Below the pieces are notes generated by a model. That model saw nothing but the letters and a program-made list of their open reading frames with translations. It searched no databases and had not been told where the DNA came from. From Thermococcus sp. JdFR-02 (GTDB lineage Archaea > Methanobacteriota_B > Thermococci > Thermococcales > Thermococcaceae), in the NCBI GenBank assembly GCA_002009975.1, contig MTLP01000001.1, positions 1-45,442 on the forward strand: DNA of 45,442 nt, read 5' to 3'. Made by a program: the position numbers and the translations under genes. Positions 24,164-37,189 of the stretch are shown piece after piece. Each line of letters opens with the position of its first letter. The first letter of the stretch is position 1.

Positions 24164-24697
24164 TCACTCCTTCCCAAACTTCTCTTTGTATAGCTCAATT
24201 GCCTTAAGGATTTCTTTCTTTGCAGTCTCGGCGTCCTCCCAACCTTCAACAATTATCTCTTTTCCTTGCAATTCCTTGTATCTTCTAAAGAAGTGGGCAA
24301 TCTCATCTAGGAATGCTTTTGGAACATCGCTTATGTCCTTCCAATCATTGAAGTAGGGATCCTCAACTGGAACTGCTAAAATCTTATAGTCTTTATCTCC
24401 GCTGTCTATCATTTTGAACAAGCCAATTGGTCTTGCCTCTATTAAAACTCCAGGATAAGTTGGTTCCCTCATAATTACCATGATATCAAAGGGATCGTCA
24501 TCGTCATACCATGTTCTTGGTATTATACCATAGTCAACTGGGTAGTGGAATGGGCTGTAAAGCACTCTATCAAGCTTTATTAATCCACTCTTTTTGTCAA
24601 GCTCATACTTGTTTCTGCTTCCCTTTGGAATTTCAATAAATGCATAGACGACTTCAGGAACCTCTGGTCCTGGCTCTAAGTCATGGAACGGATTCAT
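24164..24697 (-). CDS. ppa: Inorganic pyrophosphatase
   Basis: [23 protein letters not shown]. Confidence 0.97.
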
Positions 24698-24992
24698 CTC
24701 AACCACCTCATAGCGTTTTTAAAAGACAAGGTTATAAATTTACCTACGCTATCTGCATTTAGCTTTTAAGGTTAGCTTTTAAAGTTGTCGCCTCCTTGTT
24801 TATTTGAAATTATTATTGTCACTTAAATACTGACGTTTTCTGAATTCTTTTAATGTCAGCTGATTGTATTAGATACAAAGAGGATTAAATGAAAGCGTTT
24901 TGGAAAAATACATCTAAAAATAACTCATGTTGAATACTAGACTGAGAGTATTTTTAACTTGTTCCCTTACTGGACCAATACTTTTTCTGTAT

Positions 24993-25244
24993 TCACGATT
25001 CAGTATCTTTTCCATGTGCAAGCCTCTCTTTCAGCTCTCCCTCCGTAAGATACTCAATTTTGTTTGAATCACCAATAATGTACGGTTCTCTATGTTTGTG
25101 TTGTATTTTCTGATCAATGTAAAATGCTGTTAGAAGTATTATAACACCAATAATTTCAAATGACCCAACTTTCTCGTTTTCGGATAAAGGAATGCATAAA
25201 AGAACATAAAAAATAAAGATTGCAATCCAATATTTTATTTTCAC
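24993..25244 (-). CDS. Small 2-TM protein, YIIGDS family (copy 3)
   Basis: Two TM helices then PYIIGDSNKIEYLTEGELKERLAHGKDTES. Confidence 0.75.
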   Translation of the reverse strand: MKIKYWIAIFIFYVLLCIPLSENEKVGSFEIIGVIILLTAFYIDQKIQHKHREPYIIGDSNKIEYLTEGELKERLAHGKDTES

Positions 25245-25250
25245 AATTCC

Positions 25251-25512
25251 TCACCTTATCTTTTTGTTTAGGATTTCTTCAAGCTCATCTTGAGTCAAAT
25301 AAACCACCTCATTCGAATCCCCAATAACATATGGAGTTTTTATGTCAAAACCACCCAAAATTATATACGCTATGATAAGTGGAGTGCATAGGAATACTGC
25401 AATTAAGGCAAAACCAACAATCAAAGACTCCATTATATAACCCGCTCCTAATGAAGTCATAAAATACAGAAAAAAACAAGAAAAAGAGAGCATTCTTAAC
25501 TCGTCTCTTCAT
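25251..25512 (-). CDS. Small 2-TM protein, YIIGDS family (copy 2), probably frameshifted in T7 tract
   Basis: PYVIGDSNEVVYLTQDEL tail; RBS-associated ATG at 25512 is out of frame by one T. Confidence 0.6.
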
Positions 25513-25539
25513 CAGTCATCCCCCATACTCTCCCTGTAC

Positions 25540-25776
25540 TCACGACTCAATATCTTTTCCATGTCCAAGCCTCTCTTTCAGCTCTTCCTCCGTAAGATAC
25601 TCAACCTTACTTGAATCGCCGATGATGTATGGATTTCTCTCTTTTCTTTTGTCTTTTTGCAATAGACCAACTACAATCATGCTGGCAACTAATATATAAA
25701 GTACAATTTCCCTGGTTTCGACTAAATATAATAAAATTAAAAAGGAAATTGCAAGTAGTATCTTAATTCTCCTCAT
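25540..25776 (-). CDS. Small 2-TM protein, YIIGDS family (copy 1)
   Basis: TM region then PYIIGDSSKVEYLTEEELKERLGHGKDIES; RBS GGTGA. Confidence 0.78.
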   Translation of the reverse strand: MRRIKILLAISFLILLYLVETREIVLYILVASMIVVGLLQKDKRKERNPYIIGDSSKVEYLTEEELKERLGHGKDIES

Positions 25777-25781
25777 TTAAA

Positions 25782-25900
25782 TCACCCAAATAGCTGTTGT
25801 AATATTTCCTTGACAATCTTACTTCCATATTTGGCAATTAACGGCAAACTTTTTTGTCCTACCGATTTAACAAAAGGTATTATAGCTCCAGTGCTGAGCT
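25782..25900 (-). pseudogene. Orphan C-terminal stub, cationic amphipathic peptide
   Basis: ...GAIIPFVKSVGQKSLPLIAKYGSKIVKEILQQLFG*; stop overlaps RBS of next gene. Confidence 0.5.
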
Positions 25901-26422
25901 CATATGAATTTGTTGATTTGTTGTTTTCAAAAGTTTTAATGCACCGAGGATGTGAATTGTGCCAAAGGCTAAAATTGCCAATGTTTGGAAAGGTGACTCT
26001 GTAAATGTCAGTAGCATCCCACTCCAGAACAAGAGGAGGTAAGTCATTATACTGCCTTTCCACTTACCTGTAAGCTGTACAATCAGATAAAACGCAACAC
26101 TCACCAAGACAATTCTTGATGAAAATGCTAAGTATATTAATGCTCCAAGGGTCAATCCATCCACCAGATGAAGAGGTCTTAATGCCTTGGCGAGTATTAG
26201 GAATCCAAAGATTACAAGCCAGCCCAATATGCTACTTTTTGTTCCTGCCATTATTGTACTCCAGAATAAGAGAACATGTGGCAAGCCCAAATAAAGATTC
26301 AGCAGATACTCAAGCCGCTTCTGCTCAAGGGCACTAAATGTAGCAAAGTATACTAACATAAAAACAAGCAACAACACAGGAATAAAAACTAAAAGAAAGG
26401 CAGGAATTTCCCCAAAATTCAT
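25880..26422 (-). CDS. Multi-pass membrane protein (putative immunity)
   Basis: ~6 TM segments; start overlaps stop of GDNNLIVGDES stub. Confidence 0.75.
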   Translation of the reverse strand: MNFGEIPAFLLVFIPVLLLVFMLVYFATFSALEQKRLEYLLNLYLGLPHVLLFWSTIMAGTKSSILGWLVIFGFLILAKALRPLHLVDGLTLGALIYLAFSSRIVLVSVAFYLIVQLTGKWKGSIMTYLLLFWSGMLLTFTESPFQTLAILAFGTIHILGALKLLKTTNQQIHMSSALEL

Positions 26423-26454
26423 GACTCATCCCCCACTATAAGGTTGTTGTCTCC
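26419..26454 (-). repeat. Conserved tail repeat GDNNLIVGDES*
   Basis: GGAGACAACAACCTTATAGTGGGGGATGAGTCATGA. Confidence 0.85.
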
Positions 26455-26488
26455 CTAGTTCTGTTATTTCCTTTTAGATTCATCTCAA

Positions 26489-26698
26489 TCACGTAAGTAA
26501 ATCTTCTGTTGGTGTTAGGAGATATGCTATGAATATTAAGCCTGCGAACACAATGAAAACAAAGTGAACTACGAATAAGATTTCTGAAAGAGTCATGTTT
26601 TCAAACAAATCCGTAGCTAGTGCTGCAACAAACCAAATAAAAATGTAAAGAATAAGGAGCCATCTAGAAAGGACTTTAGGTATCTTGACCTTCATCAA
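26489..26698 (-). CDS. Small 2-TM protein, PTEDL family
   Basis: Two TM helices; ends LLTPTEDLLT; paralog of 26780-26986. Confidence 0.72.
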   Translation of the reverse strand: MMKVKIPKVLSRWLLILYIFIWFVAALATDLFENMTLSEILFVVHFVFIVFAGLIFIAYLLTPTEDLLT

Positions 26699-26724
26699 TT
26701 ATCCCCCACTATTAAGTTGTTACC
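26695..26724 (-). repeat. Conserved tail repeat GNNLIVGDN*
   Basis: GGTAACAACTTAATAGTGGGGGATAATTGA. Confidence 0.85.
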
Positions 26725-26779
26725 TCATCTAATATTCCCTTTGGATTCATTTCACTCACGTAAGTTAGTTGATCAGGTT

Positions 26780-26986
26780 CTAACGTAAATCTTCTGTTGG
26801 TGCTAAAAGATTCCAAATATACAAGAACACTAGTATTACTAGGAATGTTATAGTAGCTAATCCTAAAATCTCTTTAATACTGGCTTTCTCTGGCCATGCA
26901 AAAACAGAGAGAAAAAGAGAAATTATGTATATCTTGAGGAGATTTTTTGCATCTTTCAAGTCCGTACTCAAACTTAGAGGCATCAC
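26780..26986 (-). CDS. Small 2-TM protein, PTEDL family
   Basis: Two TM helices; ends LLAPTEDLR. Confidence 0.72.
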   Translation of the reverse strand: MMPLSLSTDLKDAKNLLKIYIISLFLSVFAWPEKASIKEILGLATITFLVILVFLYIWNLLAPTEDLR

Positions 26987-27015
26987 TCATCACCCACTAT
27001 TAAGTTGTTATTCAC
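26983..27015 (-). repeat. Conserved tail repeat VNNNLIVGDE*
   Basis: GTGAATAACAACTTAATAGTGGGTGATGAGTGA. Confidence 0.85.
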
Positions 27016-27470
27016 ATTTGTGACGGCTTCTGTCCCACCTCTTTCCGTATTATGTGAGAGTAAAGTGCTAGGACTGAGTAGGCGAAGTACACCACACCTA
27101 ACGCAATCCCTACTTTCACTGAACCAAGCTTCCAGTAAGTCATGACAAACGACAGTGCACACAGGCCGATCAAATACATCACACACAGTGCTGGACTCTC
27201 TGAGATTTTTCCAAGCACTCTCCCATTTATTTTGTTCTTCGCTATTAACAGCATGGACGCAAACGCCCCAACATATCCAGCGAGTTCATAAACTAGACCA
27301 AGGACTAACAGGATAGTCATAACCGTTGCTAGAGAGAGCACAGGTATAGTTTCATTTTTCCAATTCTTGGAGACTCCTTCTGCTACAATCATATAACTTA
27401 CTGAAACAATGAAAATAAAGTTAAGGACAAAGTAAACTAGGAATATGTCCACTAGACCCACTAATATCAC
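27012..27470 (-). CDS. Multi-pass membrane protein (putative immunity)
   Basis: ~5 TM; similar layout to 27538-27945. Confidence 0.75.
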   Translation of the reverse strand: MILVGLVDIFLVYFVLNFIFIVSVSYMIVAEGVSKNWKNETIPVLSLATVMTILLVLGLVYELAGYVGAFASMLLIAKNKINGRVLGKISESPALCVMYLIGLCALSFVMTYWKLGSVKVGIALGVVYFAYSVLALYSHIIRKEVGQKPSQM

Positions 27471-27473
27471 CCC

Positions 27474-27530
27474 TTAATCCTCAATTATTAAGTTATTATC
27501 TCCTGAATCATTGGGAAGTTCCACGTCAAA
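27474..27530 (-). repeat. Orphan stub FDVELPNDSGDNNLIIED*
   Basis: Matches tail of 27960-28451 cassette (PPDDPGDNNLIIGDN). Confidence 0.8.
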
Positions 27531-27537
27531 TCTTAAA

Positions 27538-27945
27538 TTATTTAGTCCTTAGGAGCAGTGCCATATAAGCTCCGTGAATCAATGCTGAAGTCAATATGGC
27601 GAATTTCACTGGGAGTTCGAAGGTTGTTAGTATGTATGCACAGATCAATAACATGGTCAATATGTATAGAATGCTGTAGTTGAATTTTCTGGCTAGGATT
27701 CCTAAGGTCTTGTCTTCTAGGCTGGTCTTAGTCATTGCTATTCCATATGCTAGGAAGGCAAGGGCCCCAGCTCCTTCGTGAAGTTTGCCAAAGATTAAAG
27801 TTATTGTCAGCATTGTGGGGGCGGAGAGGATGGGAGTCCTGGTATCAACCTTGGACTTCGGAGTTCCAATCACCTGAAGGATAAAAATTAGGAGAATAAA
27901 GAAAGCATTTGCAGAGATATAGAATCCAACAATTCCAACTCCCAT
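27538..27945 (-). CDS. Multi-pass membrane protein (putative immunity)
   Basis: ~5 TM; RBS GGTGAT directly after cassette stop. Confidence 0.78.
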   Translation of the reverse strand: MGVGIVGFYISANAFFILLIFILQVIGTPKSKVDTRTPILSAPTMLTITLIFGKLHEGAGALAFLAYGIAMTKTSLEDKTLGILARKFNYSILYILTMLLICAYILTTFELPVKFAILTSALIHGAYMALLLRTK

Positions 27946-27959
27946 CGAATATCACCTTG

Positions 27960-28451
27960 TTAGTTATCTCCGATAATGAGGTTGTTATCTCCTGGGTCGT
28001 CTGGAGGTATTGGTTCATTCATTACATGCCATACGAATTCTATATATAATACAAATATCCCTGCAATACCCCCAGCTGTTTTTGATGATACCTCAAGACC
28101 ATACCTCTCTGCAGATTTTTGAATTGCTTTGGTAAGACCTACCCATCCAGCTACTGTCTTGTAGTCACTAACTTTTCCCACTACCTCATTCTTAATTTTA
28201 ACAACTACACCGTATGCTCCCTTTACAACATCCCAAACCCCAGTTGGCTCTGGATTCATTTGTATTACGAACATTGTTGGGTTTTCTAGTTGATTTAGAT
28301 AAGCTTTGATTGCTATTGGTGTTCCTGGGTTCATGTCACTTAAATCCACTGGAATCCTCTCCTGTAATTCATCATTAATCGGAATCGTGAAAGTGAACGT
28401 TCCAGTGGAGTATGAGCTTAAACTCAAACTGCTCGGATTCGGAATTACCAA
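27960..28451 (-). pseudogene. Orphan alternative C-terminal cassette 3
   Basis: No signal peptide, starts mid beta-domain; Gly/Ala-rich hydrophobic helices, ends DNNLIIGDN. Confidence 0.65.
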
Positions 28452-28951
28452 GTTATCACTTCTTGGATATTGCCTGTTTTATAATTATGTAAGTATCTGA
28501 TTGATAGGAGAGCATAAACTACCAGAGGAGGTATTATTCCGATTATGTGGCTGGTTCTTAGTTTTCTGCAGAGCAACTTTAGCATTCCCACTGACATTAG
28601 TCCAAGTATGAGAGTGTTCACGAGTATTATACGTTCCTTCAAGTTCATTGAGAACCTTATAAACCTCTCACGCTGGTATTTTAGTCTAGCTGCTAAAATC
28701 GATGCCAAAGCAGTTGTCATAAGGATTCCCATTATTGCCGGGATTGAGTTGTTTAATCTTATTGAGAGTAGCATTCCAAAAATTCCCATCAGTACCAGGT
28801 ACGGAAAAACAACAATATCCACACCAAACTCTGGCAACTTACTTTCCACTTCGCCAACCAAGGGACGCATCCCCTCGTACTTAAAAACCAACACTAAAAT
28901 GAGAAAAACAAAAACAAAAAGAACCATGCCAAAATATACCTCACACATCAT
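28445..28951 (-). CDS. Multi-pass membrane protein (putative immunity)
   Basis: ~5 TM; likely ATG at 28951/28948 just after TDGNSICGDGG* stub. Confidence 0.75.
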   Translation of the reverse strand: MMCEVYFGMVLFVFVFLILVLVFKYEGMRPLVGEVESKLPEFGVDIVVFPYLVLMGIFGMLLSIRLNNSIPAIMGILMTTALASILAARLKYQRERFIRFSMNLKERIILVNTLILGLMSVGMLKLLCRKLRTSHIIGIIPPLVVYALLSIRYLHNYKTGNIQEVITW

Positions 28952-29023
28952 TTCAACCACCATCCCCACAGATCGAGTTTCCGTCAGTTTTAGTGTAGTT
29001 GTGTAGAGAATCATAAGATACAG

Positions 29024-29515
29024 CTAAGTTGTCAGTCTCGTTGATCTTTCTTGGAGTGTTAGTATTTTTAGTGTAATAATGTACTGTGATATATAAATTA
29101 GTGTGAATAATAGCAATGTTCTTGTCAAATTGCATTGTTCTCTTAGCTCCCAGTATACTTGAAGAGGAACTAGGTAAATAAAGAAGTACAAAACTGTGAC
29201 AATGACTTTTATTAGATTGTCTGAAATATGGAAGTGTCTTAGTAACAGGTATATCCCAAACCATATCATGAAAGATAGTAACAAATTCCAGACTACCGAG
29301 GCATCTGGAGTTAAGTAGTATGTAACATATGTAGAATTAATGTACACGAGAATTGGAAGAGATATCCCAAATGCTTTAAGCAACTTTGTATTTCCCTTTT
29401 CCCGCTTCCATTTTTCCGAATAGTACCAGATTGTTAAGATAAAACCAAAAATAAGTGAGAAATATAAGAAAGCAGACACAAATTGATACTCATGAAATAC
29501 TTCAAAGCACGACAC
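29024..29515 (-). CDS. Multi-pass membrane protein (putative immunity)
   Basis: ~5 TM; RBS GGAGGTGA formed by last codons of upstream cassette. Confidence 0.75.
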   Translation of the reverse strand: MSCFEVFHEYQFVSAFLYFSLIFGFILTIWYYSEKWKREKGNTKLLKAFGISLPILVYINSTYVTYYLTPDASVVWNLLLSFMIWFGIYLLLRHFHISDNLIKVIVTVLYFFIYLVPLQVYWELREQCNLTRTLLLFTLIYISQYIITLKILTLQERSTRLTT

Positions 29516-29519
29516 ATCA

Positions 29520-30461
29520 TCACCTCCTAACGGTGTCCCCTATAATTTCATTGTTATCCTGTTCTTGACCTCCGGGTATTGGTGGTCCAATGATACCCTT
29601 GTACATAAAATAAAAGAAGTCAATAGTTAAATGTTTCAAGGTAGAGAGGATAAATCCCACACCCTCTGGAATATCTGCAAGTATATGTATCTTTTCTCTT
29701 GTGTTTTCAGTCTCATAATAAGGAACTAAGGTTACATCATCCCCAATATAATTAGGTAGTACAGTTAAGTTTACATAGATCCTATAAGACATCCCATCCG
29801 GTTGTGTTAGGTACATGGTGTAAAATTCATCGCTAAATATATCTGTTGCCAAAGAACTATCAGCACTTATAACAAAAGAGAGAGTGTCTTCAACATTGCT
29901 CTGAGTTAAATTTGTTGCTCCAGTATCTATTCTTACACTTTTAGGTGGTCGATTAAACCTTGTTTGGGGATACAATGGATATTCTCCAAAAAATATCTCT
30001 CTGATGCTCACTTCCACTGAATTACTAGGTTCAAATATTGTACTCACATAGATCTTACATGAAATTATAGATTCAGTTCCAGGAGCACTCACTTGTACAA
30101 TTTTTGGAGTACATATCATCCAGGCTTCTATCTCTTCCTGTGAATTCACCGTTATCACTTTTTCATCCTCCTCCTGACCGTTAACTACGAGGTAAAACTT
30201 GTAAGTGCCCGGATTTGCGAAAGTGAAGTCAAACCAGTCCTGGTATTCCTCAAGAGGATCAAAGTCAACCTCAGCCTCCTTGACCTTAATAACACTGTGC
30301 CACACATCATCTGGCGAAGTGTAAACATAATACACCCTAACTGGAATAGAGTACCTTGGGGCGTTTTCATCATTCCTAACAGTAAGAGTGAACCTCACCT
30401 TAGCACCCACTGAGACATCACCACTAACTATACTGTTTTTGCTTTCTCTCCAACGCTTCAA
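29520..30461 (-). pseudogene. Orphan alternative C-terminal cassette 2 (CARDB-like domain + variable tip)
   Basis: VSVGAKVRFTLTVRN...FTFANPGTYKFYLVVNG resembles Ig repeats of the 1002-aa protein; no credible start; ends DNNEIIGDTVRR. Confidence 0.68.
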
Positions 30462-30888
30462 TTTCCTTAATAGCCTGCTGAAGCATCCTCAAGGACTTCC
30501 AATAAAGAATGAATGTAAGCACTGCCACTATCCAGACAAGAATTTCTTTTATTCCTGCTAGGAAAATCATCACTAAAACCATGAGTGCTGGAATGTGAAT
30601 ATGTTTCCATTTCTGTCTTAGATAATCGACGTCTAAAATGCCCCTTACAACTCTATAAATCAAGTAAATTGCGAGAATAGAAGCAAGCACTGGTGCAGCT
30701 CCTTTTCCTTGGGCTGCTGAAACATTACTGAATGCATATAGTAAAGAGAACCACGGGGCTAGTGTCATTAAAGTAACACTACCTTCATAATTCCCCCTCA
30801 TGCTCTGAAGTACCCATGTAATTATTAGAATAACAACATAAAATAGTGAGATTGCAAAAAATACAAAAAAAGGAAACTCTCCGTACAT
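30424..30888 (-). CDS. Multi-pass membrane protein (putative immunity)
   Basis: ~5 TM; follows TDGNKVIGG* stub. Confidence 0.78.
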   Translation of the reverse strand: MYGEFPFFVFFAISLFYVVILIITWVLQSMRGNYEGSVTLMTLAPWFSLLYAFSNVSAAQGKGAAPVLASILAIYLIYRVVRGILDVDYLRQKWKHIHIPALMVLVMIFLAGIKEILVWIVAVLTFILYWKSLRMLQQAIKEIEALERKQKQYS

Positions 30889-30893
30889 GCCCG

Positions 30894-31030
30894 CTACCCT
30901 CCTATGACTTTGTTTCCATCAGTTTCTACAAAATCTTCTGAATACTTCCACAACCACCACACCTCTTTTGCAATTCTAACTAACTTTTCAATTGCAATCC
31001 AGATAGCATTTTTAGGGGTTTCTATGACAG
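30894..31030 (-). pseudogene. Orphan C-terminal stub
   Basis: Open frame without start: VIETPKNAIWIAIEKLVRIAKEVWWLWKYSEDFVETDGNKVIGG*. Confidence 0.65.
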
Positions 31031-31032
31031 AT

Positions 31033-31413
31033 TTATATTCCTCCTTTTTGCTCTTGTTGAGTTAGATACCTTAAACTATTTCTAATGTGGATAAGTTCTT
31101 GTCTGATTTGCCATCTCTCAATTAAAGAGTACAACAACACGAGAGCGACAAAGTCTCTTAGACTTCCACTCATAGCAAAAGATATTGCAATAATCCCTAA
31201 CAAAATATACCTAACTACTAATTCTCCGGGATCCTGGTCAATATTTCCAAGATTAAGCTCCTTTTTAAGACTTTGAATTTCATTTTTAACCGGATAAAAA
31301 GCTGAGAGGAATGCAAATAGAATAAAGGATAAAAAATGAATCTCCTGTTTACTAAAAGCATATGTCAGTAGTGATAACACTGAAATCCCTATTGAGATAA
31401 TATCAAACTTCAT
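31033..31413 (-). CDS. 4-TM membrane protein (putative immunity)
   Basis: Two TM hairpins; follows cassette 1. Confidence 0.75.
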   Translation of the reverse strand: MKFDIISIGISVLSLLTYAFSKQEIHFLSFILFAFLSAFYPVKNEIQSLKKELNLGNIDQDPGELVVRYILLGIIAISFAMSGSLRDFVALVLLYSLIERWQIRQELIHIRNSLRYLTQQEQKGGI

Positions 31414-31434
31414 ATGTACCACCCTCCAAAATTG

Positions 31435-31998
31435 TCACTTTCCAGATATATCTTTCCAAATACCTTGACCAATATTTCTAACAAACAGAAATACTTGGAT
31501 AGCTGTTTTTACTGGTTCTGGTATTGGGGTCATTTCGACCATCACAGTTCCAATGTATTCTACTGGAGCATATGCCAATCCAAGGGGTGCAACTATCATT
31601 AATCCACCTTTTTTAATACCTCCTTCGGCATCCTCTCTCCAGTACTCACTTCCTTCATACCTTGCTATTATAACGTTGTCTAGGATTTTATCCCCGAGAT
31701 TTTCTATCCACAAGGTTATGCTTAAGTAGTGTGGTGTGTCTGGTCTGTCCCTGGTATAGTAACAATTCCCGCCAGAACAACTCCAGTGAGTCGTATAAGG
31801 TGTCAAGTCTCTGACGTCATCTAATCCTAAGGCACTTGCCAATCTTTCATCCAAAGGAACCAATGATGGATTACAATTCATGCTTGCAATAACGTTCCCC
31901 ACGGGTATCACTTCCACCCTAACCTCGCTCCAGTGCTCTTTCCCTTTTTCATTTGGCTTTCCGTTATAGTTGTTAAGTGTAAATAAAAGCCAATCCAA
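31435..31998 (-). pseudogene. Orphan alternative C-terminal cassette 1
   Basis: Begins LFTLNNYNGKPNEKGKEHWSEVRV, homologous to internal LFLDNYDGEPNGIGEEHWDEVRV of the 1002-aa protein, then diverges. Confidence 0.75.
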
Positions 31999-32011
31999 AG
32001 GGCACCTACTA

Positions 32012-32356
32012 TCACTTGGTTATATTCGATTTATCCTCGGGCCTTCTTGTTAGTATTGCAAGAATTCCTAAGCCTGTTGAGATGCCCCACAACGTTCCAA
32101 GGGAGAGAGCCAGAATTAGATTATCGGTTACTGCCCATGCTGGAAGGACATAGAGTGGAAAGCTAACTACAATGCCTATAATGGCTTTCTCCTTTAGGGG
32201 CAACGCTTTCTTCCAGTAAAATGTAATGAACCCGATAAGATATGCAGTAATCAGGAACTGTGGGAGTAAATATTTCGCAAGATAAAACGCGCTCGCTACC
32301 GCGATAAGAAACATAAAAAAGGCAGGAAGTACAAATTTGTTCTTGGTTATCGGCAT
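32012..32356 (-). CDS. 4-TM membrane protein (putative cognate immunity)
   Basis: Four hydrophobic segments; RBS GGAGGTGA is the TGG AGG TGA end of the large gene. Confidence 0.78.
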   Translation of the reverse strand: MPITKNKFVLPAFFMFLIAVASAFYLAKYLLPQFLITAYLIGFITFYWKKALPLKEKAIIGIVVSFPLYVLPAWAVTDNLILALSLGTLWGISTGLGILAILTRRPEDKSNITK

Positions 32357-32361
32357 TGTAC

Positions 32362-35300
32362 TCACCTCCAGCTCCATGCTCGTCTGATAAAGTCAGCGAT
32401 TACTGGTGCCAACTCTCCAAGTCCCTTTAGAACCTTTCCTGCACGTATGAGCTTTGCTGAAACAATAATTGCTTTAACTTCACCACCAATTAATACAGCA
32501 TTCGTTCCAACGTCCACTATTACGTCACTGTTGTCCTGCTTTATATTCACCACATCGAAGCCTGTGAAAGTAATGTCTTCTGCGTTCTGTGGAGAGATTA
32601 TGTATTCTATTGATACTCCAACGTAAGTTCCAAACAAGTCTTTCTCAAGTGTTATTAATCCCGTATGGGCAGTGTTTTTGAAAACTATTTCTGCAGTTTG
32701 GGAAGGTTCCACCTTAGCTGGATATTCAATCATCCATGCAGATTCTAATGATTCCATGAACTCTTGATTCTCAATTGACCAGTTTTCAACACTTACAGAG
32801 TTTATACTAACATCATTTTGAGTAGGATTGTAAATAATAGCCCTACAAACCAATTTAGCCTTGTATTCTATGCCGTTCCAGTTAAATTCGGGATCATTGC
32901 ATTCGAATGCTACTTGTTGTAGTTCTGTTTCGTTGCTTGGGTGTACTATCACTCTTACTTCGTCCCAGTGCTCTTCGCCTATTCCGTTAGGCTCACCATC
33001 GTAGTTGTCGAGGAAGAGGGTGTAAGTGTGGGTTCCAACGCCAGAAACTTGCAGGCTGAATGAAGTTAAAGTGTAATCCTGAGCACTCGCTGGTAATGTT
33101 GTACTAACCCTCTTGATCACTGCACCATCCTCATCCACAACATAACCAAACAATGAATAAGCATTGCCCAAGTAATTCGAAGCTTTAACCGTAAAAACCA
33201 CAGTACCACCACCCACAATCTCCGTTGGCATTGCCTCCAAACTAACACCAAACTGAGCATTCGCCGGCACTACATTTACAGTGCCCTCCCTGTAAGACGC
33301 AGTCCCCCAAGGCACCGAAACCATAACCCCCCACACATATCTTCCCACTTTTTCCGGAGTCCAGTAAAGCTTAAACGTTGCACTCTTTCCACCATTCAAT
33401 GAAACAGACTCACTATAAACTTCAGAACCATTAACTTTTAACTTTAGTGTGAAACTCTTAGACGAGCTGTAAGTATTCTTAACTTTGACCCTAAATTCTG
33501 CAGTGTCACCAACTCTCGGTGGATTTGGATAAAGTTCAACGCTTTCGATTGTTAAGTTGCCGGAGTCTGTACTACTGTCATCGTCTTCCACCTTTATTGT
33601 TCCCACTGCATATGTTGTCCCATCAACCTTTGCGTAGTAGGTTCTTTCGCCTGGTGTATTGAAAGTTAACTGCAGAGTCTTGGTTTTAGTTTCGCCAGCT
33701 GGAACTGTGAGTGTATCCTCTTTAGATTTCCCGCCAGCAGTGACCAGCAAATTGAACGTTTTATCACTCGTCATGTAATTGGTTATCGTGAAGGTAAACT
33801 CTACTGGTTCATTAACTTTCACAATAGCCTTTGAAACGGAAACTTGAGAATCGAACAGCTGAATTGTTTTTGAGACTGTTTTTATAACCATTGCCTCCTC
33901 ACCACAGCCTGCTGGAGCGCTTAAAACTTCCTCTCCACCGGGAACACTGTTTATATTGTTGCACCATTTTGTGTAGGTGACTTTTATGGTTTTGCTGAGC
34001 GTTATCTCCTGAGCATTGCTTGGAATGTCCTCAGTGAAGTAACTTCCCACGGGCAAAGTTATTGCTCTACTTTCCCCAGCTCCCAAGTCAAATGGTCCGT
34101 ATTCTTTATTCCCATCAATGTAAATGTTGATGTTTGTTGCCTGAGCATTCTCTGCCCTAACAGTGATCTGAACCTTATAGGAAGCTTTATCTGGAGTTAT
34201 TGAATTAGCAATAATTTCACCATTGATGTACAGAACAGTCTCTCCAGTGTTTGGATCTAAGGCTTCTTGGGTAAGTGGATCTTCTAGGTTTTCACCAGTG
34301 GTGAAAGTGCTTGGAGGCTTAATTGGTGGGAATGGCTTGATAGGACTGTCACATGAATAGCTTATCATCGAAGAAACTTTAACTGCGATTAATGCTTCCT
34401 TCAACTCTGCAATCTTTCCGTTTAAAATTAATTTTAACTCCTCATTATCATTCCCAAAGTCTTTTGCTAACAGTAGCGTTTTTATTTGTGAAGCCTTTTC
34501 GTAAGATTCTAAAGCCTTCCAGTAATATTGTACTTTGTATGTCTCATAGCATATAACTCCATTCTTAATCTTACTTCTTTTTTCTGTGCCACCATCTAAG
34601 ATCAAAATACCGTTAGAACTGTAAGTACTCCCAGAACTACTAATCACTCCATAAATTTTATCCTTAAGCCTTTGAATTGTCGTCAATTGCTCATCAAGCG
34701 TTCCATTATAGTAAGCTTTGTAAAAATTAGTCCACTCCCCCTGAAGTTGGGGCAAAATTATATTCTCTCCTTCGGGAATGCTAGCATTCTCCGCATTACT
34801 CCACTTCCATTTCTCCAGTGCCCATGTTTCGTAGTAGTTGTATTTGAAGCCAACCTCAATGAAAGCTAAGCTGAAATCTTCCAAAAACTTGGTTAAATTA
34901 AAATCTTCATTAATTTGATCAGAATTCTCAATAATGTACTGTTCTAAGGCTTTAATCTCATCATCACTCCAGCCCTGTTCCTTCAAAGCCTGGATTGTCT
35001 CCTCAGGCAAACCATTTTGAGAAATATTTTGAGCCAGCTCCCTAAGCTCCTCTGCAGTATAGTAAGTCTTAACTCCCGAATTTTTAATCTCCTCCAGACT
35101 CTGCCATATTAATGCTGAAATTTGAGCAGCATTTTGTGAACCATTTTGAGAATTCTTGATTAGCTCCTGAGCTAAATTTTCAATTTGATTTGGGTCATTA
35201 GTATTGTTCAGCTGAACTATTAATTCTGCTTCTCTGTTTAAGATTTTCCAGAATTCTTCATAGGCTTGGTTATCTAATGCTGAGACATAAATACTCTGAT

Positions 35301-35370
35301 TTTCTGCTACAATAAAACTTAAACTAATCATTAGATATATTATGACTAAGCTTACTATTTTTCTCATCAT
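32362..35370 (-). CDS. Large secreted protein: helical N-domain, Pro linker, CARDB/Ig-like repeats, amphipathic C-terminal tip (putative polymorphic toxin)
   Basis: Signal peptide; Q/E/N-rich helices; PIKPFPPIKPP; repeats such as PNPPRVGDTAEFRVKVKN; cationic hydrophobic C-terminus. Confidence 0.85.
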   Translation of the reverse strand: MMRKIVSLVIIYLMISLSFIVAENQSIYVSALDNQAYEEFWKILNREAELIVQLNNTNDPNQIENLAQELIKNSQNGSQNAAQISALIWQSLEEIKNSGVKTYYTAEELRELAQNISQNGLPEETIQALKEQGWSDDEIKALEQYIIENSDQINEDFNLTKFLEDFSLAFIEVGFKYNYYETWALEKWKWSNAENASIPEGENIILPQLQGEWTNFYKAYYNGTLDEQLTTIQRLKDKIYGVISSSGSTYSSNGILILDGGTEKRSKIKNGVICYETYKVQYYWKALESYEKASQIKTLLLAKDFGNDNEELKLILNGKIAELKEALIAVKVSSMISYSCDSPIKPFPPIKPPSTFTTGENLEDPLTQEALDPNTGETVLYINGEIIANSITPDKASYKVQITVRAENAQATNINIYIDGNKEYGPFDLGAGESRAITLPVGSYFTEDIPSNAQEITLSKTIKVTYTKWCNNINSVPGGEEVLSAPAGCGEEAMVIKTVSKTIQLFDSQVSVSKAIVKVNEPVEFTFTITNYMTSDKTFNLLVTAGGKSKEDTLTVPAGETKTKTLQLTFNTPGERTYYAKVDGTTYAVGTIKVEDDDSSTDSGNLTIESVELYPNPPRVGDTAEFRVKVKNTYSSSKSFTLKLKVNGSEVYSESVSLNGGKSATFKLYWTPEKVGRYVWGVMVSVPWGTASYREGTVNVVPANAQFGVSLEAMPTEIVGGGTVVFTVKASNYLGNAYSLFGYVVDEDGAVIKRVSTTLPASAQDYTLTSFSLQVSGVGTHTYTLFLDNYDGEPNGIGEEHWDEVRVIVHPSNETELQQVAFECNDPEFNWNGIEYKAKLVCRAIIYNPTQNDVSINSVSVENWSIENQEFMESLESAWMIEYPAKVEPSQTAEIVFKNTAHTGLITLEKDLFGTYVGVSIEYIISPQNAEDITFTGFDVVNIKQDNSDVIVDVGTNAVLIGGEVKAIIVSAKLIRAGKVLKGLGELAPVIADFIRRAWSWR

Positions 35371-35410
35371 CCATCACCCTATCAGTAATCATGAAAGAAA
35401 TAACTACGAG

Positions 35411-35476
35411 CAAATATAAATACTTTTTCTATGCAAATTTTGCTTATCACTTTAGATAGTATGCAAAATATGCATA
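35411..35476 (-). promoter_or_regulatory. BRE/TATA promoter with two upstream palindromic operator-like boxes
   Basis: Minus strand AGAAAAAG-TATTTATAT; TATGCA-N5-TGCTTA (35430-35446) and TATGCA-N5-TGCATA (35460-35476). Confidence 0.6.
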
Positions 35477-35513
35477 AATCCCTCTTGGTGATAAAAGATA
35501 ACAAAAGTAGAAT

Positions 35514-35927
35514 TCACTTCAGGATACCTTCCAAAACCAAAATCTTTTTCTGTCTCAAATACACAACGGGAATCCCCCTTTCTCTAAGCTTTTTCTTTAA
35601 CCCCTTATCATTAGTGCACACTATGACATTTGATCTTTTTAGTGCAAACTCATAAATCTGCTCATCAGTAGGCTTTTCTCCAAATTTTCCGATATCTATT
35701 ATTTCAAACCTCTCAATTAACTGTCTCGCCATTCTAATGGCAACTAAATCTTTCCCTCGTGATTTCTTTTCTATAAGGTCTAACTCTTTAATCACAACAT
35801 TAGGAATTACAACTTTGAAATTAACGTCAAGAACTCTCTTTAGTTCGCCAATTATATCAACACCAAACTGACCGGGAATCAGGAGAAAATTCGTGTCCGG
35901 AACAACAAGATAGCCTTTCTTTTCCAT
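35514..35927 (-). CDS. PIN-domain protein (Fcf1/Utp24-like)
   Basis: VPDTNFL, EL, TDE, CTND; conserved after eIF2gamma. Confidence 0.92.
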   Translation of the reverse strand: MEKKGYLVVPDTNFLLIPGQFGVDIIGELKRVLDVNFKVVIPNVVIKELDLIEKKSRGKDLVAIRMARQLIERFEIIDIGKFGEKPTDEQIYEFALKRSNVIVCTNDKGLKKKLRERGIPVVYLRQKKILVLEGILK

Positions 35928-35956
35928 ATAACTCACCAAAAAAGAAGTAAGAAATG

Positions 35957-37189
35957 TCACTCCTTAATTAAGCCATATCCAATTAAGCGCCATCTTGATC
36001 CTACTTGCCTGCTTATTGCCACCCTTTCTCCAACTTCTGCACATATGGGTATTTGGAGCTTTAGCTCAATCTCGTCTTTTCCTAAGCCTGTGACAAGTCC
36101 CATTGTTCTTGCAGTTCCAACGTTCAAAAGCAAAACTTCTCTTTTCTTTATTGGTTCAACTTTAAGCTCTTCCTCAGTTCCAACAACCCTATCCAGAAGA
36201 TGAACTTCTATTCTAAGTGTATCCCACACTGGTGGCAATTTTCCAGGCTTTCCTACTACATTTCCAGCCATTAAATCGTTCTTAGTCAAGAAGGGATCTA
36301 ATTTAGTTCCAATTCCAACCAATCCACCGGGATAAGCTTCATCTACGAAACGACCTCCAGCTTGAAGGGAAACTATCTCAGTAACTATTGGCTCATATCT
36401 AATCCTTCCATGCTCCTCATATGGAACACCTGGTCTTATTTCAATTTCGTCCCCTACTCTTAACTTCCCTTGGATTATTGAACCACCTATTACTCCCCCA
36501 ACAAGTTTTTCTGGTGGAGTTCCAGGCTTATTCACATCAAAACTCCTTAAGACAAGCATTTTAGGTGGCTTATTTGGATCCCTCTCTGGAGTTGGGATAA
36601 AATCTTCAATTGCTTTAATTAAAATGTCAATGTTCGCTCCATGCAAAGCTGAGATTGGAATTATTGGAGCATTTTCTGCAACAGTTCCTTTAACAAACTC
36701 CTTAATTTGCTTGTAGTTTTCTAAAACTTGTTCTTTTGTAACTAATTCAATCTTATTTTGAACTATGATGATGTTCCTATTTCCAATGATTTGAAGAGCC
36801 ATTAAGTGTTCTTTAGTTTGAGGCTTTGGGCACGGTTCATTTGCCGCGATAACCAAAATTGCACCATCCATTAATGAAGCACCAGCCAACATTGTTGTCA
36901 TCAAAGCCTCGTGTCCCGGAGAATCTATGAAAGAAACTCTTCTTTCAAACTCAGTTTCATGCCCACAATAGGGACAAACTGGAGAAGTAGAATATTTCCC
37001 ACAATTTGGACATTTCCTTATCTCGGCATCGGCAAACCCTATTTTTATTGTAATTCCTCTCCTCAGCTCTTCACTATGAGTGTCTGTCCAGATACCAGTT
37101 AATGCCCTTGTAAGCGTCGTTTTACCGTGATCAACGTGACCAACCATACCAATATTAACTTCAGCTTGCTTAAACTTCTTTTTTGACAT
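35957..37189 (-). CDS. eif2g: Translation initiation factor 2 gamma subunit
   Basis: [31 protein letters not shown]. Confidence 0.98.

Follow-up and report, generated by a model that had tools for sequence, protein, structure and literature searches.

A 45,442-nt stretch of DNA from Thermococcus sp. JdFR-02 (hereafter the window; contig C17 of a 2.36-Mb genome in 44 contigs) carries an island of genes for immunoglobulin (Ig)-domain proteins and membrane proteins, in which a 35-residue junction motif encoded by about 105 nt occurs once in full, within the large first gene, and once in part, in a shorter open reading frame (ORF) downstream. We consider it highly probable that this motif marks the boundary between the constant body and the variable C-terminal end (tip) of the large protein and is the usual left crossover for lineage-to-lineage exchange of tips and membrane-protein genes, and that the shorter Ig-type frames (cassettes) are displaced ends in decay. 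A first-pass annotation had read the shared sequence as a constant/variable boundary and the downstream ORFs as displaced alternative ends of the same protein family; both proposals stand, in the window and in other genomes, with the qualifications given below.

The island lies at 24.9–35.4 kb on the minus strand, as do all features described here, and consists of an ORF of 1002 aa (32362–35370) followed by co-directed small ORFs. In a homologue search (n = 32; all homologues with a source name are from Thermococcales) the 1002-aa protein matched PAP_07455 of Palaeococcus pacificus (P0011; E 7.3e-149), the reference protein of arCOG07710 in the paper that describes the VARTIG modules (Makarova et al. 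2021, PMC8416519). According to the main text of that paper, a VARTIG module begins with a gene for a large Ig-domain protein and continues with small membrane proteins and shorter Ig proteins matching the C-terminus of the large one. In the large protein, a GN motif and a single strictly conserved serine mark the conserved N-terminal region, the distal Ig domain has two conserved cysteines, and exchange between species makes the last ~200 aa hypervariable. The window shows the same layout, with the large gene at the 5′-end of a co-directed array of membrane-protein and short-Ig genes. S166 and G305 are invariant and N306 is nearly invariant in 26 full-length sequences, and the window protein has all three. 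The first-pass annotation had pointed to a recurring CxP-like motif after the junction; its cysteine is indeed nearly invariant (C823 and C841 are each present in at least 90% of the 26 full-length homologues, and in the window protein as AFECNDP and KLVCRA; they are the cysteine pair that PMC8416519 describes for the distal Ig domain), but its proline is not conserved. Given the E-value of 7e-149 to the arCOG07710 reference protein and the shared features, the island is a VARTIG module, and the 1002-aa ORF is its full-length large Ig-domain protein. The protein starts with a signal-like hydrophobic segment (residues 1–24) and matches Pfam CARDB at residues 605–682 (1.4e-11); no second family was found in Pfam or NCBIfam. 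No further VARTIG-type locus was found by tblastn in the whole 2.36-Mb genome, no tRNA genes were found in the window, the G+C content of the island is not distinct, and the junction plus tip had no match by tblastn in plasmids and phages.

The full junction motif, GVGTHTYTLFLDNYDGEPNGIGEEHWDEVRVIVHP (aa 778–812; 32935–33039), was recognised with a hidden Markov model (HMM), and its 35-residue pattern reads G-V-G-x-H-T-x-K-L-F-L-D-N-Y-D-G-x-P-N-G-x-G-E-E-H-W-x-E-V-x-V-E-V-K-P. The motif appears to form the last two strands and a short linker of the penultimate CARDB-like Ig domain, because the alignment of that domain (701–812) to the Pfam-recognised CARDB domain (596–700; hhalign probability 95.4%) places GVGTHTYTLFLD opposite VGRYVWGVMVSV; the other CARDB-like domain adjoining the recognised one aligns to it with a probability of 83.6%. 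The partial copy (31906–31977) covers HMM positions 11–34 of 35 (independent E-value 3e-11) and lies in cassette 1, a 187-aa ORF at 31435–31998. At the peptide level, LFTLNNYNGKPNEKGKEHWSEVRVEV (residues 5–30 of the 187-aa ORF, nt 31909–31986) and LFLDNYDGEPNGIGEEHWDEVRVIV (residues 785–809 of the 1002-aa ORF, nt 32944–33018) share 16 of 25 residues (BLASTP in a small database, E 2e-6), and a tblastn search of the whole genome gave E-values of 1.9e-4 and 4e-3 and no third copy. The exact 11-bp core that had been noted between them, CCAGTGCTCTT, encodes (E/K)EHW; the window has it at 31930 and 32965 and nowhere else, against 0.04 expected occurrences (0 of 100 shuffles reached two or more). The sequences do diverge just after the shared stretch, as had been claimed: between main gene and cassette 1, DNA identity drops from 47/70 over the junction to 26/68 directly 3′ of it. 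A repeat finder independently returned the two junction copies as one pair (D4; 64 nt, 72% identical, spacing 1035).

Between the full and the partial junction copy stand the tip of the main gene and one membrane-protein gene. The tip, here called class A (32362–32934), comprises a distal Ig domain with C823 and C841 and an amphipathic or hydrophobic tail, and aligns at 47–60% identity with six tips of other loci, cassettes among them. It is directly followed by tm121 (32012–32377), which encodes a membrane protein with three hydrophobic segments. Taken at its longest, the tm121 ORF opens at 32377, so that it overlaps the main-gene stop; in an alignment its homologues begin at the methionine corresponding to 32356 (MP..KN.F), which makes the ATG there the probable true start. 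GGAGGTGA is present in the final codons of the main gene. Homologues of tm121 lie near class A tips in loci L039 (60.6%), L022 (72%) and L023 (45%).

The frame of cassette 1 is open from 32019; a signal peptide is absent, and the sole start is a TTG. The cassette consists of the partial junction, a 14-aa head of another tip class (class C) and a C-terminal module (31438–31860; VPLDE...GIWKDISGK) that is 90% identical to its counterpart in genome G097, 65% in G004 and 60% in G003. In G003 (60% identical) and G050 (51%) the same module forms the C-terminus of full-length frames, of 930 and 1000 aa, respectively. A complete distal Ig domain precedes it in G097, G004, G003, G075 and G050, so that about 76 aa of Ig sequence separate junction and VPLDE in the homologues against 14 aa in cassette 1; the Ig core therefore seems to have been lost from cassette 1. 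The head-to-module join falls at VPLD, which is common to both partners (microhomology). Cassette 1 is thus best described as a displaced end damaged by a later internal deletion, that is, a damaged chimera. The membrane-protein gene tm129 (31033–31422) directly follows the module in three of three loci (G097, 93% identical; G004, 85%; G003, 75%), and a single DNA block of 91% identity spans 30901–31860, module and tm129 together.

The locus of G097 is syntenic with the window (the neighbouring pyrophosphatase is 94% identical) and its last cassette bears directly on the origin of cassette 1. The penultimate Ig domain and junction of the window main gene match this G097 cassette at 89.4% DNA identity, and the match ends at V809 (EVRVIV|HP). 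Where this G097 cassette continues, it is matched by the junction and 14-aa head of cassette 1. In a three-way alignment the G097 cassette agrees with the main gene at 53/59 positions upstream and with cassette 1 at 49/64 downstream, against 24/62 and 31/68 in the cross-comparisons. The G097 cassette, matched by the main gene on its left and by cassette 1 on its right, is therefore the unsplit form of the two, which directly supports the reading of cassette 1 as a displaced alternative end.

We next consider the junction across the order. A census of Thermococcales found matches in 36 of 99 genomes (76 rows, of which 26 lie in frames of at least 700 aa); 24 of the 76 rows cover the motif only, all of them in frames of at most 316 aa. 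The 99 genomes searched include no other species of the genus to which the window lineage belongs. When the motif HMM was run over six-frame ORFs of the window and of 40 loci from matching genomes, 69 motif copies were found in 34 loci, 19 of them in frames of 700 aa or more and 50 in shorter ones, and 48 of the 69 are followed by 180–230 aa (an earlier search with the motif HMM gave 55 matches at E up to 1 and 49 at 1e-3). Among the 50 short frames, 25 contain the motif complete, in most cases preceded by one Ig domain, and 25 are cut inside the motif; in 22 of the latter the cut motif sits at the very start of the open frame.

Similarity between genomes changes at the same place. We collected 150 between-genome collinear blastn matches of at least 75% identity and at least 150 nt. 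Of these, 76 end at the motif end (within –60 to +90 nt of its last base); another 39 begin within the motif and extend for up to 1.8 kb across tip and membrane genes. Thus 115 of 150 matches begin or end at the motif; the remainder are 14 that cross the junction, 11 wholly upstream, 3 wholly downstream and 7 of other kinds. A smaller first set of 71 matches gave the same picture (38 ending at the motif, 19 starting inside it, 3 spanning), and its tip-side matches start at –38 to –98 nt. Full-length proteins behave as mosaics as well. Among 153 pairs of the 18 motif-bearing ones, identity averages 0.36 for the 250 aa upstream, 0.69 for the junction and 0.27 for the tip, with upstream and tip identity uncorrelated (Spearman –0.04, p 0.63). 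P0007 (Thermococcus sp. MV11) and P0020 (T. cleftensis CL1_0960) are identical over the upstream 250 aa (1.00), nearly so in the motif (0.94) and unlike in the tip (0.20). These two proteins part right after ..EVRVEVK and form the cleanest natural recombinant pair in the data.

The exchanged segment extends beyond the tip. Tip and next ORF are shared together in 17 of 27 pairs with tip identity of at least 70%, in 8 of 24 at 55–70% and in 3 of 24 at 40–55%; the fraction is 1 of 148 at 20–40% and 9 of 609 without tip similarity. Tip and next gene are inherited together, and the VARTIG paper, in its main text, likewise links a tip branch to a membrane-protein cluster (PMC8416519). Tips also occupy different positions in different genomes: the 51 pairs of tips at least 55% identical between loci comprise 24 full-length/cassette, 24 cassette/cassette and 3 full-length/full-length pairs, so that in 24 of 51 a single tip class occupies the expressed position of one genome and a cassette of another.

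The motif is conserved at the DNA level beyond what its amino acids demand. At conserved-amino-acid columns of ten full-length genes, pairwise codon identity is 0.57 in the motif (25 columns) and 0.39 upstream (149 columns), an excess reached in 0 of 10,000 permutations, and several motif codons are near fixation across 47 copies at a background usage of 0.2–0.3. In cassettes cut off from the rest of the Ig domain, the EEHW..VK part is as conserved as in full-length genes (nucleotide identity 0.87 vs 0.85; third positions 0.76 vs 0.75), which fits a homology patch or recent displacement and proves neither. We tentatively infer that the motif DNA may act as a homology patch for recombination after DNA uptake, an idea that we regard as a serious possibility and still short of even likelihood. 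A more elaborate form appears doubtful: that the ~105-nt junction is a conserved recombination patch directing in-frame exchange of tip and membrane gene between Thermococcales cells, with the DNNxxxG[GD]-stop ending of certain tips, which overlaps the ribosome-binding site of the gene that follows, as a second element that brackets the cassette. If true, it would amount to sequence-guided cassette shuffling for archaeal Ig-domain surface proteins, and would supply the sequence features promoting recombination that, together with the recombination sites, are stated as not known in the main text of PMC8416519.

In the model that we favour, the unit exchanged 3′ of the motif would comprise the distal Ig domain with its two cysteines and the C-terminal module with its hydrophobic tail, jointly ~190–215 aa, as well as the one or two membrane-protein genes that come next. 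Such units would move between Thermococcales lineages with the left crossover inside the motif or at its end, and the resident tip would be pushed downstream, persisting as a cassette whose truncated 5′ end lies in a duplicate of the motif. At the locus in the window, tip A and tm121 (the 1035-nt spacing) would have been inserted at the junction of a former gene of the form Ig – junction – class C tip; cassette 1 would be the displaced remainder, from which the Ig core was later lost by deletion at the VPLD microhomology. The membrane proteins would be cognate partners of the tips, with an immunity-like or anchoring role.

Several observations weigh against this model or limit its reach. The boundary statistics are all anchored on motif-bearing copies, these copies are related, so that the counts overstate independent events, and the 14 matches that cross the junction run through the proposed crossover. 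When 26 full-length homologues were gathered regardless of the motif, 11 carried it and two more had it in degenerate form. The first-pass annotation had proposed an alignment of homologues to see whether conservation falls off after EHWxEVRV; in this set discrete tip classes do appear after the motif, freely combined with different upstream types, but conservation falls gradually, with no cliff, and a sharp cliff was obtained from 10 genes that had been found through the motif. Nor does homology stop at the motif altogether: it continues weakly beyond, as the tips keep a homologous Ig domain with two conserved cysteines. Other junction types (cassette 2 and others) occupy the same position, so the EHW-type sequence is not required. 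At the locus itself, the displaced block is less like G097 than the upstream block (~77% vs ~90%), which means that its history may involve more than one event. At 47/70 identity and with a longest exact run of 11 nt, main gene and cassette 1 share too little sequence to undergo efficient homologous recombination within the present genome. Finally, searches with the tips (Pfam, NCBIfam, PDB sequences, Atlas, 1.84 billion representatives) revealed no functional domain in any of them, be it of a toxin, an enzyme or another kind.

A third junction type (..AGTYRITLKVNG....I.V) was seen in loci L023 (4587–7376), L025 (7776–10775), L024 (7398–9758) and L021 (5887–7170). It precedes the same distal Ig domain and VPLDE module that follow an EHW-type junction in G004 (L022, 9533–10273), so one tip can sit behind different junctions.

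The most serious alternative is that the motif is merely a well-conserved end of an Ig domain, where boundaries gather since only whole-domain recombinants survive, the DNA itself playing no part. In its favour, the motif coincides with the final strands of a CARDB-like domain, other junction sequences fill its position in other subfamilies, and 5′ boundaries form a second cluster near –300 nt, where this penultimate domain begins, so that selection for whole domains does contribute; such selection could explain much of the boundary clustering without a DNA signal. Many cassettes of 260–340 aa are exactly the penultimate Ig domain plus a tip. Against it, synonymous sites are more conserved in the motif than elsewhere in the gene, cassettes lacking the rest of the domain keep the 3′ half of the motif as strongly as full-length genes do, and the 39 tip-side matches start inside the motif and not at an exact domain edge. 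We regard domain selection as the whole explanation as possible and rather improbable; it is not exclusive with a homology patch.

Somewhat less probable again, and in our judgement unlikely, is a true polymorphic toxin system in which the tips are secreted membrane-active toxins and the membrane proteins that follow provide immunity. The co-inheritance of tip and next gene fits it, although physical linkage alone would give the same result. Tips end in hydrophobic or amphipathic sequence, the partners are small polytopic membrane proteins, and the distance from tip stop to partner start is 2–20 nt, with Shine–Dalgarno (SD)-like GGTGAT/GGAGG in the last codons of the tip. The main text of PMC8416519 draws the same parallel, but also the same caveat, that a toxin domain is wanting, as in the searches above; moreover, the part directly after the junction is a homologous Ig domain and not a set of unrelated toxin folds. 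In the Atlas the class A tip had a best score of 0.78, below any useful level. The profile of the cassette 1 module gave 11 hits among the 1.84 billion representatives; two of them, P0038 and P0042, are long repetitive Ig/cadherin-type proteins and probably spurious.

Active switching within the genome, with the main gene recombining with its own silent cassettes at the junction, is suggested by the arrangement of an expressed gene followed by promoter-less, signal-less, 5′-truncated copies that share the junction. We consider it very unlikely here, because the junction copies are too diverged (the identity and exact run given above) and the cassettes are damaged, cassette 1 lacking the Ig core and cassette 3 the junction. 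The nearest partners of every block of the locus lie in other genomes, and the main text of PMC8416519 reports no recombination within loci and exchange between species instead. Eight sequencing runs are on record, none of them entered as RNA; assembled contigs of runs X1–X4 were identical to the window over 24500–36000, with no joints, though contigs cannot reveal rare variants and thus speak neither for nor against switching.

Targeted hypermutation by a diversity-generating retroelement, to which the confinement of variability to the C-terminus of an Ig-type protein might point, and a chance match were both rejected: discrete tip classes recur in other genomes at 55–99% identity, the repeat finder found no template/variable repeat pair in the island, nothing reverse-transcriptase-like appears among the listed ORFs or the ten that were domain-scanned (other island ORFs were not scanned), and the genome-wide E-value (2e-4) and the 11-mer expectation (0.04 times) leave practically no room for chance.

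Exchange at a conserved junction, the reading we retain, invites comparison with better-known systems. In CdiA-CT/VENN proteins a short peptide likewise splits a constant body from a variable end, and orphan ends keep a piece of it, each with a partner gene; there, however, the ends are unrelated toxin folds with cytoplasmic immunity proteins, whereas the window has ends with a homologous Ig start and no recognisable toxin, membrane-protein partners and, as its motif, an archaeal Ig strand pair. Rhs/YD-repeat toxins similarly combine a boundary motif, PxxxxDPxGL, with displaced orphan tips and partner genes, but their motif belongs to an autoproteolytic site that releases the toxin; the window protein has no YD repeats, and no cleavage is known or predicted. 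The likeness to VENN and PxxxxDPxG boundaries drawn in the first-pass annotation thus extends to the boundary motif and to orphan cassettes that keep part of it, and fails in that the tips are not unrelated domains. Antigenic variation of the pilE/pilS type also pairs one expressed gene with silent 5′-truncated copies that have conserved flanks; it proceeds by high-frequency conversion within a genome, unlike the between-lineage exchange and decaying cassettes seen here. Polymorphic toxin systems of archaea have reportedly been treated by Makarova et al. in 2019. To our knowledge, no archaeal system other than VARTIG has been described that relies on hypervariable Ig domains.

Polymorphic toxin systems in general (for which see Zhang et al. 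2012, PMC3482391) resemble the window in the long first gene, the C-terminal cassettes and the adjacent partner genes, and differ in that the window tips have no identifiable toxin domain. One of their features is present in the window, namely a conserved boundary motif with orphan cassettes that keep part of it. As to another, a cognate immunity gene directly after each toxin end, tip and next gene are adjacent and co-inherited, and the membrane proteins are candidates for such a role. The comparison is not new, since the main text of PMC8416519 already likens VARTIG to polymorphic toxins and ties it to self/non-self recognition or inter-microbial conflict.

The system itself is likewise already known: gene order, cysteine pair, the hypervariable end of ~200 aa, between-species exchange and linkage of tip and membrane gene all agree with the main text of the VARTIG paper (PMC8416519). 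What is new is the exact junction, its DNA-level conservation and the split/unsplit locus pair. In the published account as given there, boundaries are not placed, whereas here they concentrate in a conserved junction of ~105 nt with synonymous-site conservation. The main text of PMC8416519 makes no mention of EHW, junction, boundary or breakpoint, though its supplementary alignment or Figure 2B may already show the motif. In the later literature we found no follow-up on VARTIG beyond an editorial, and the available text of a 2026 Thermococcales pangenome preprint makes no use of the terms immunoglobulin, CARDB, hypervariable or polymorphic. A single conserved junction as exchange point makes the mechanism testable in naturally competent Thermococcus strains, as do the movement of tip and partner as a block and the split/unsplit locus pair. 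The window alone is of more modest interest, as one more VARTIG locus with decaying cassettes.

Downstream of tm129 the array continues with further cassettes, relics and membrane genes. An unannotated tip remnant (30897–31034) sits between tm129 and tm154, just upstream of the latter; it consists of the last 46 aa of a tip, ends in ...GNKVIGG and is 82.6% identical to residues 1025–1070 of P0005. The ORF that follows, tm154 (30424–30888), encodes hydrophobic segments and a predicted membrane protein. Cassette 2 (29520–30461) was recognised by homology and has a whole Ig domain, another junction type (..YLVVNGQEEDEKVITVNS) and a tip ending in DNNEIIGD. It is 45% identical to residues 724–915 of P0013, with the peak in the Ig domain, and a DNA block shared with G097 at 91.8% stops at aa 115 (..EAWM|ICTP), eight residues past the cassette 2 junction. 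The ORFs tm163 and tm189, predicted membrane proteins from their hydrophobic segments, follow it (28445–29515). Cassette 3 (27960–28451) holds the C-terminal ~145 aa of a tip, ends in DNNLIIGDN, is 50% identical to residues 878–1020 of P0013 and has neither junction nor cysteine strands; it is followed by tm135 and tm152 (27012–27945), again ORFs with hydrophobic segments.

The remaining tip sequences are 3′-end relics before tm68, tm69 and tm180 (25508–27014), each a 36-nt element encoding a tip ending with its stop, identified as repeat family D2 and through translations; the copy at 25508 is weak. The five D2 copies (25508–25543, 26418–26453, 26691–26726, 26979–27014 and, at the end of cassette 3, 27956–27991) are 64–100% identical to the reference copy and encode ..[DG]NNLI[IV]GD[EN] and a stop on the minus strand. 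Each directly precedes the start of a membrane-protein gene (a 55-aa ORF/s80, tm180, tm69, tm68 and tm135, respectively). At 26418 and 26691 an in-frame stop has only 9–11 codons behind it; the final ~30 nt of the tip thus appear to have stayed with the partner gene after tip loss. The D2 element could be a candidate right-hand cassette boundary.

These sequences correspond to an ending, D[ND]NxxxG[GD] after a hydrophobic stretch, which the main text of PMC8416519 reports on 31 proteins, not all, and for which it proposes a role as sorting signal. In the window the ending is present on cassettes 2 and 3 and on the relics, and the full-length protein (..FIRRAWSWR) is without it. The last codons of tips overlap SD-like sequence (GGAGGTGA, GGTGAT or GGAGGG) 5–8 nt before the next start at 32354–32372, 30885–30905, 29516–29535 and 26979–27000, and the C-terminal G-G/G-D of DNNxxxG[GD] may in part be a consequence of the ribosome-binding site that serves the coupled gene for a membrane protein.

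At the far end of the island lie three tandem paralogues of 83, 80 and 78 aa (24993–25776), 32–45% identical to one another and with two hydrophobic segments each. They share a C-terminal P-Y-[IV]-I-G-D-S..EYLT..EL, of which the I-I-G-D recalls the tip ending ..NNxIIGD, and members of this family occur in at least seven other VARTIG loci (L021, L022, L024, L025, L034, L036 and L040).

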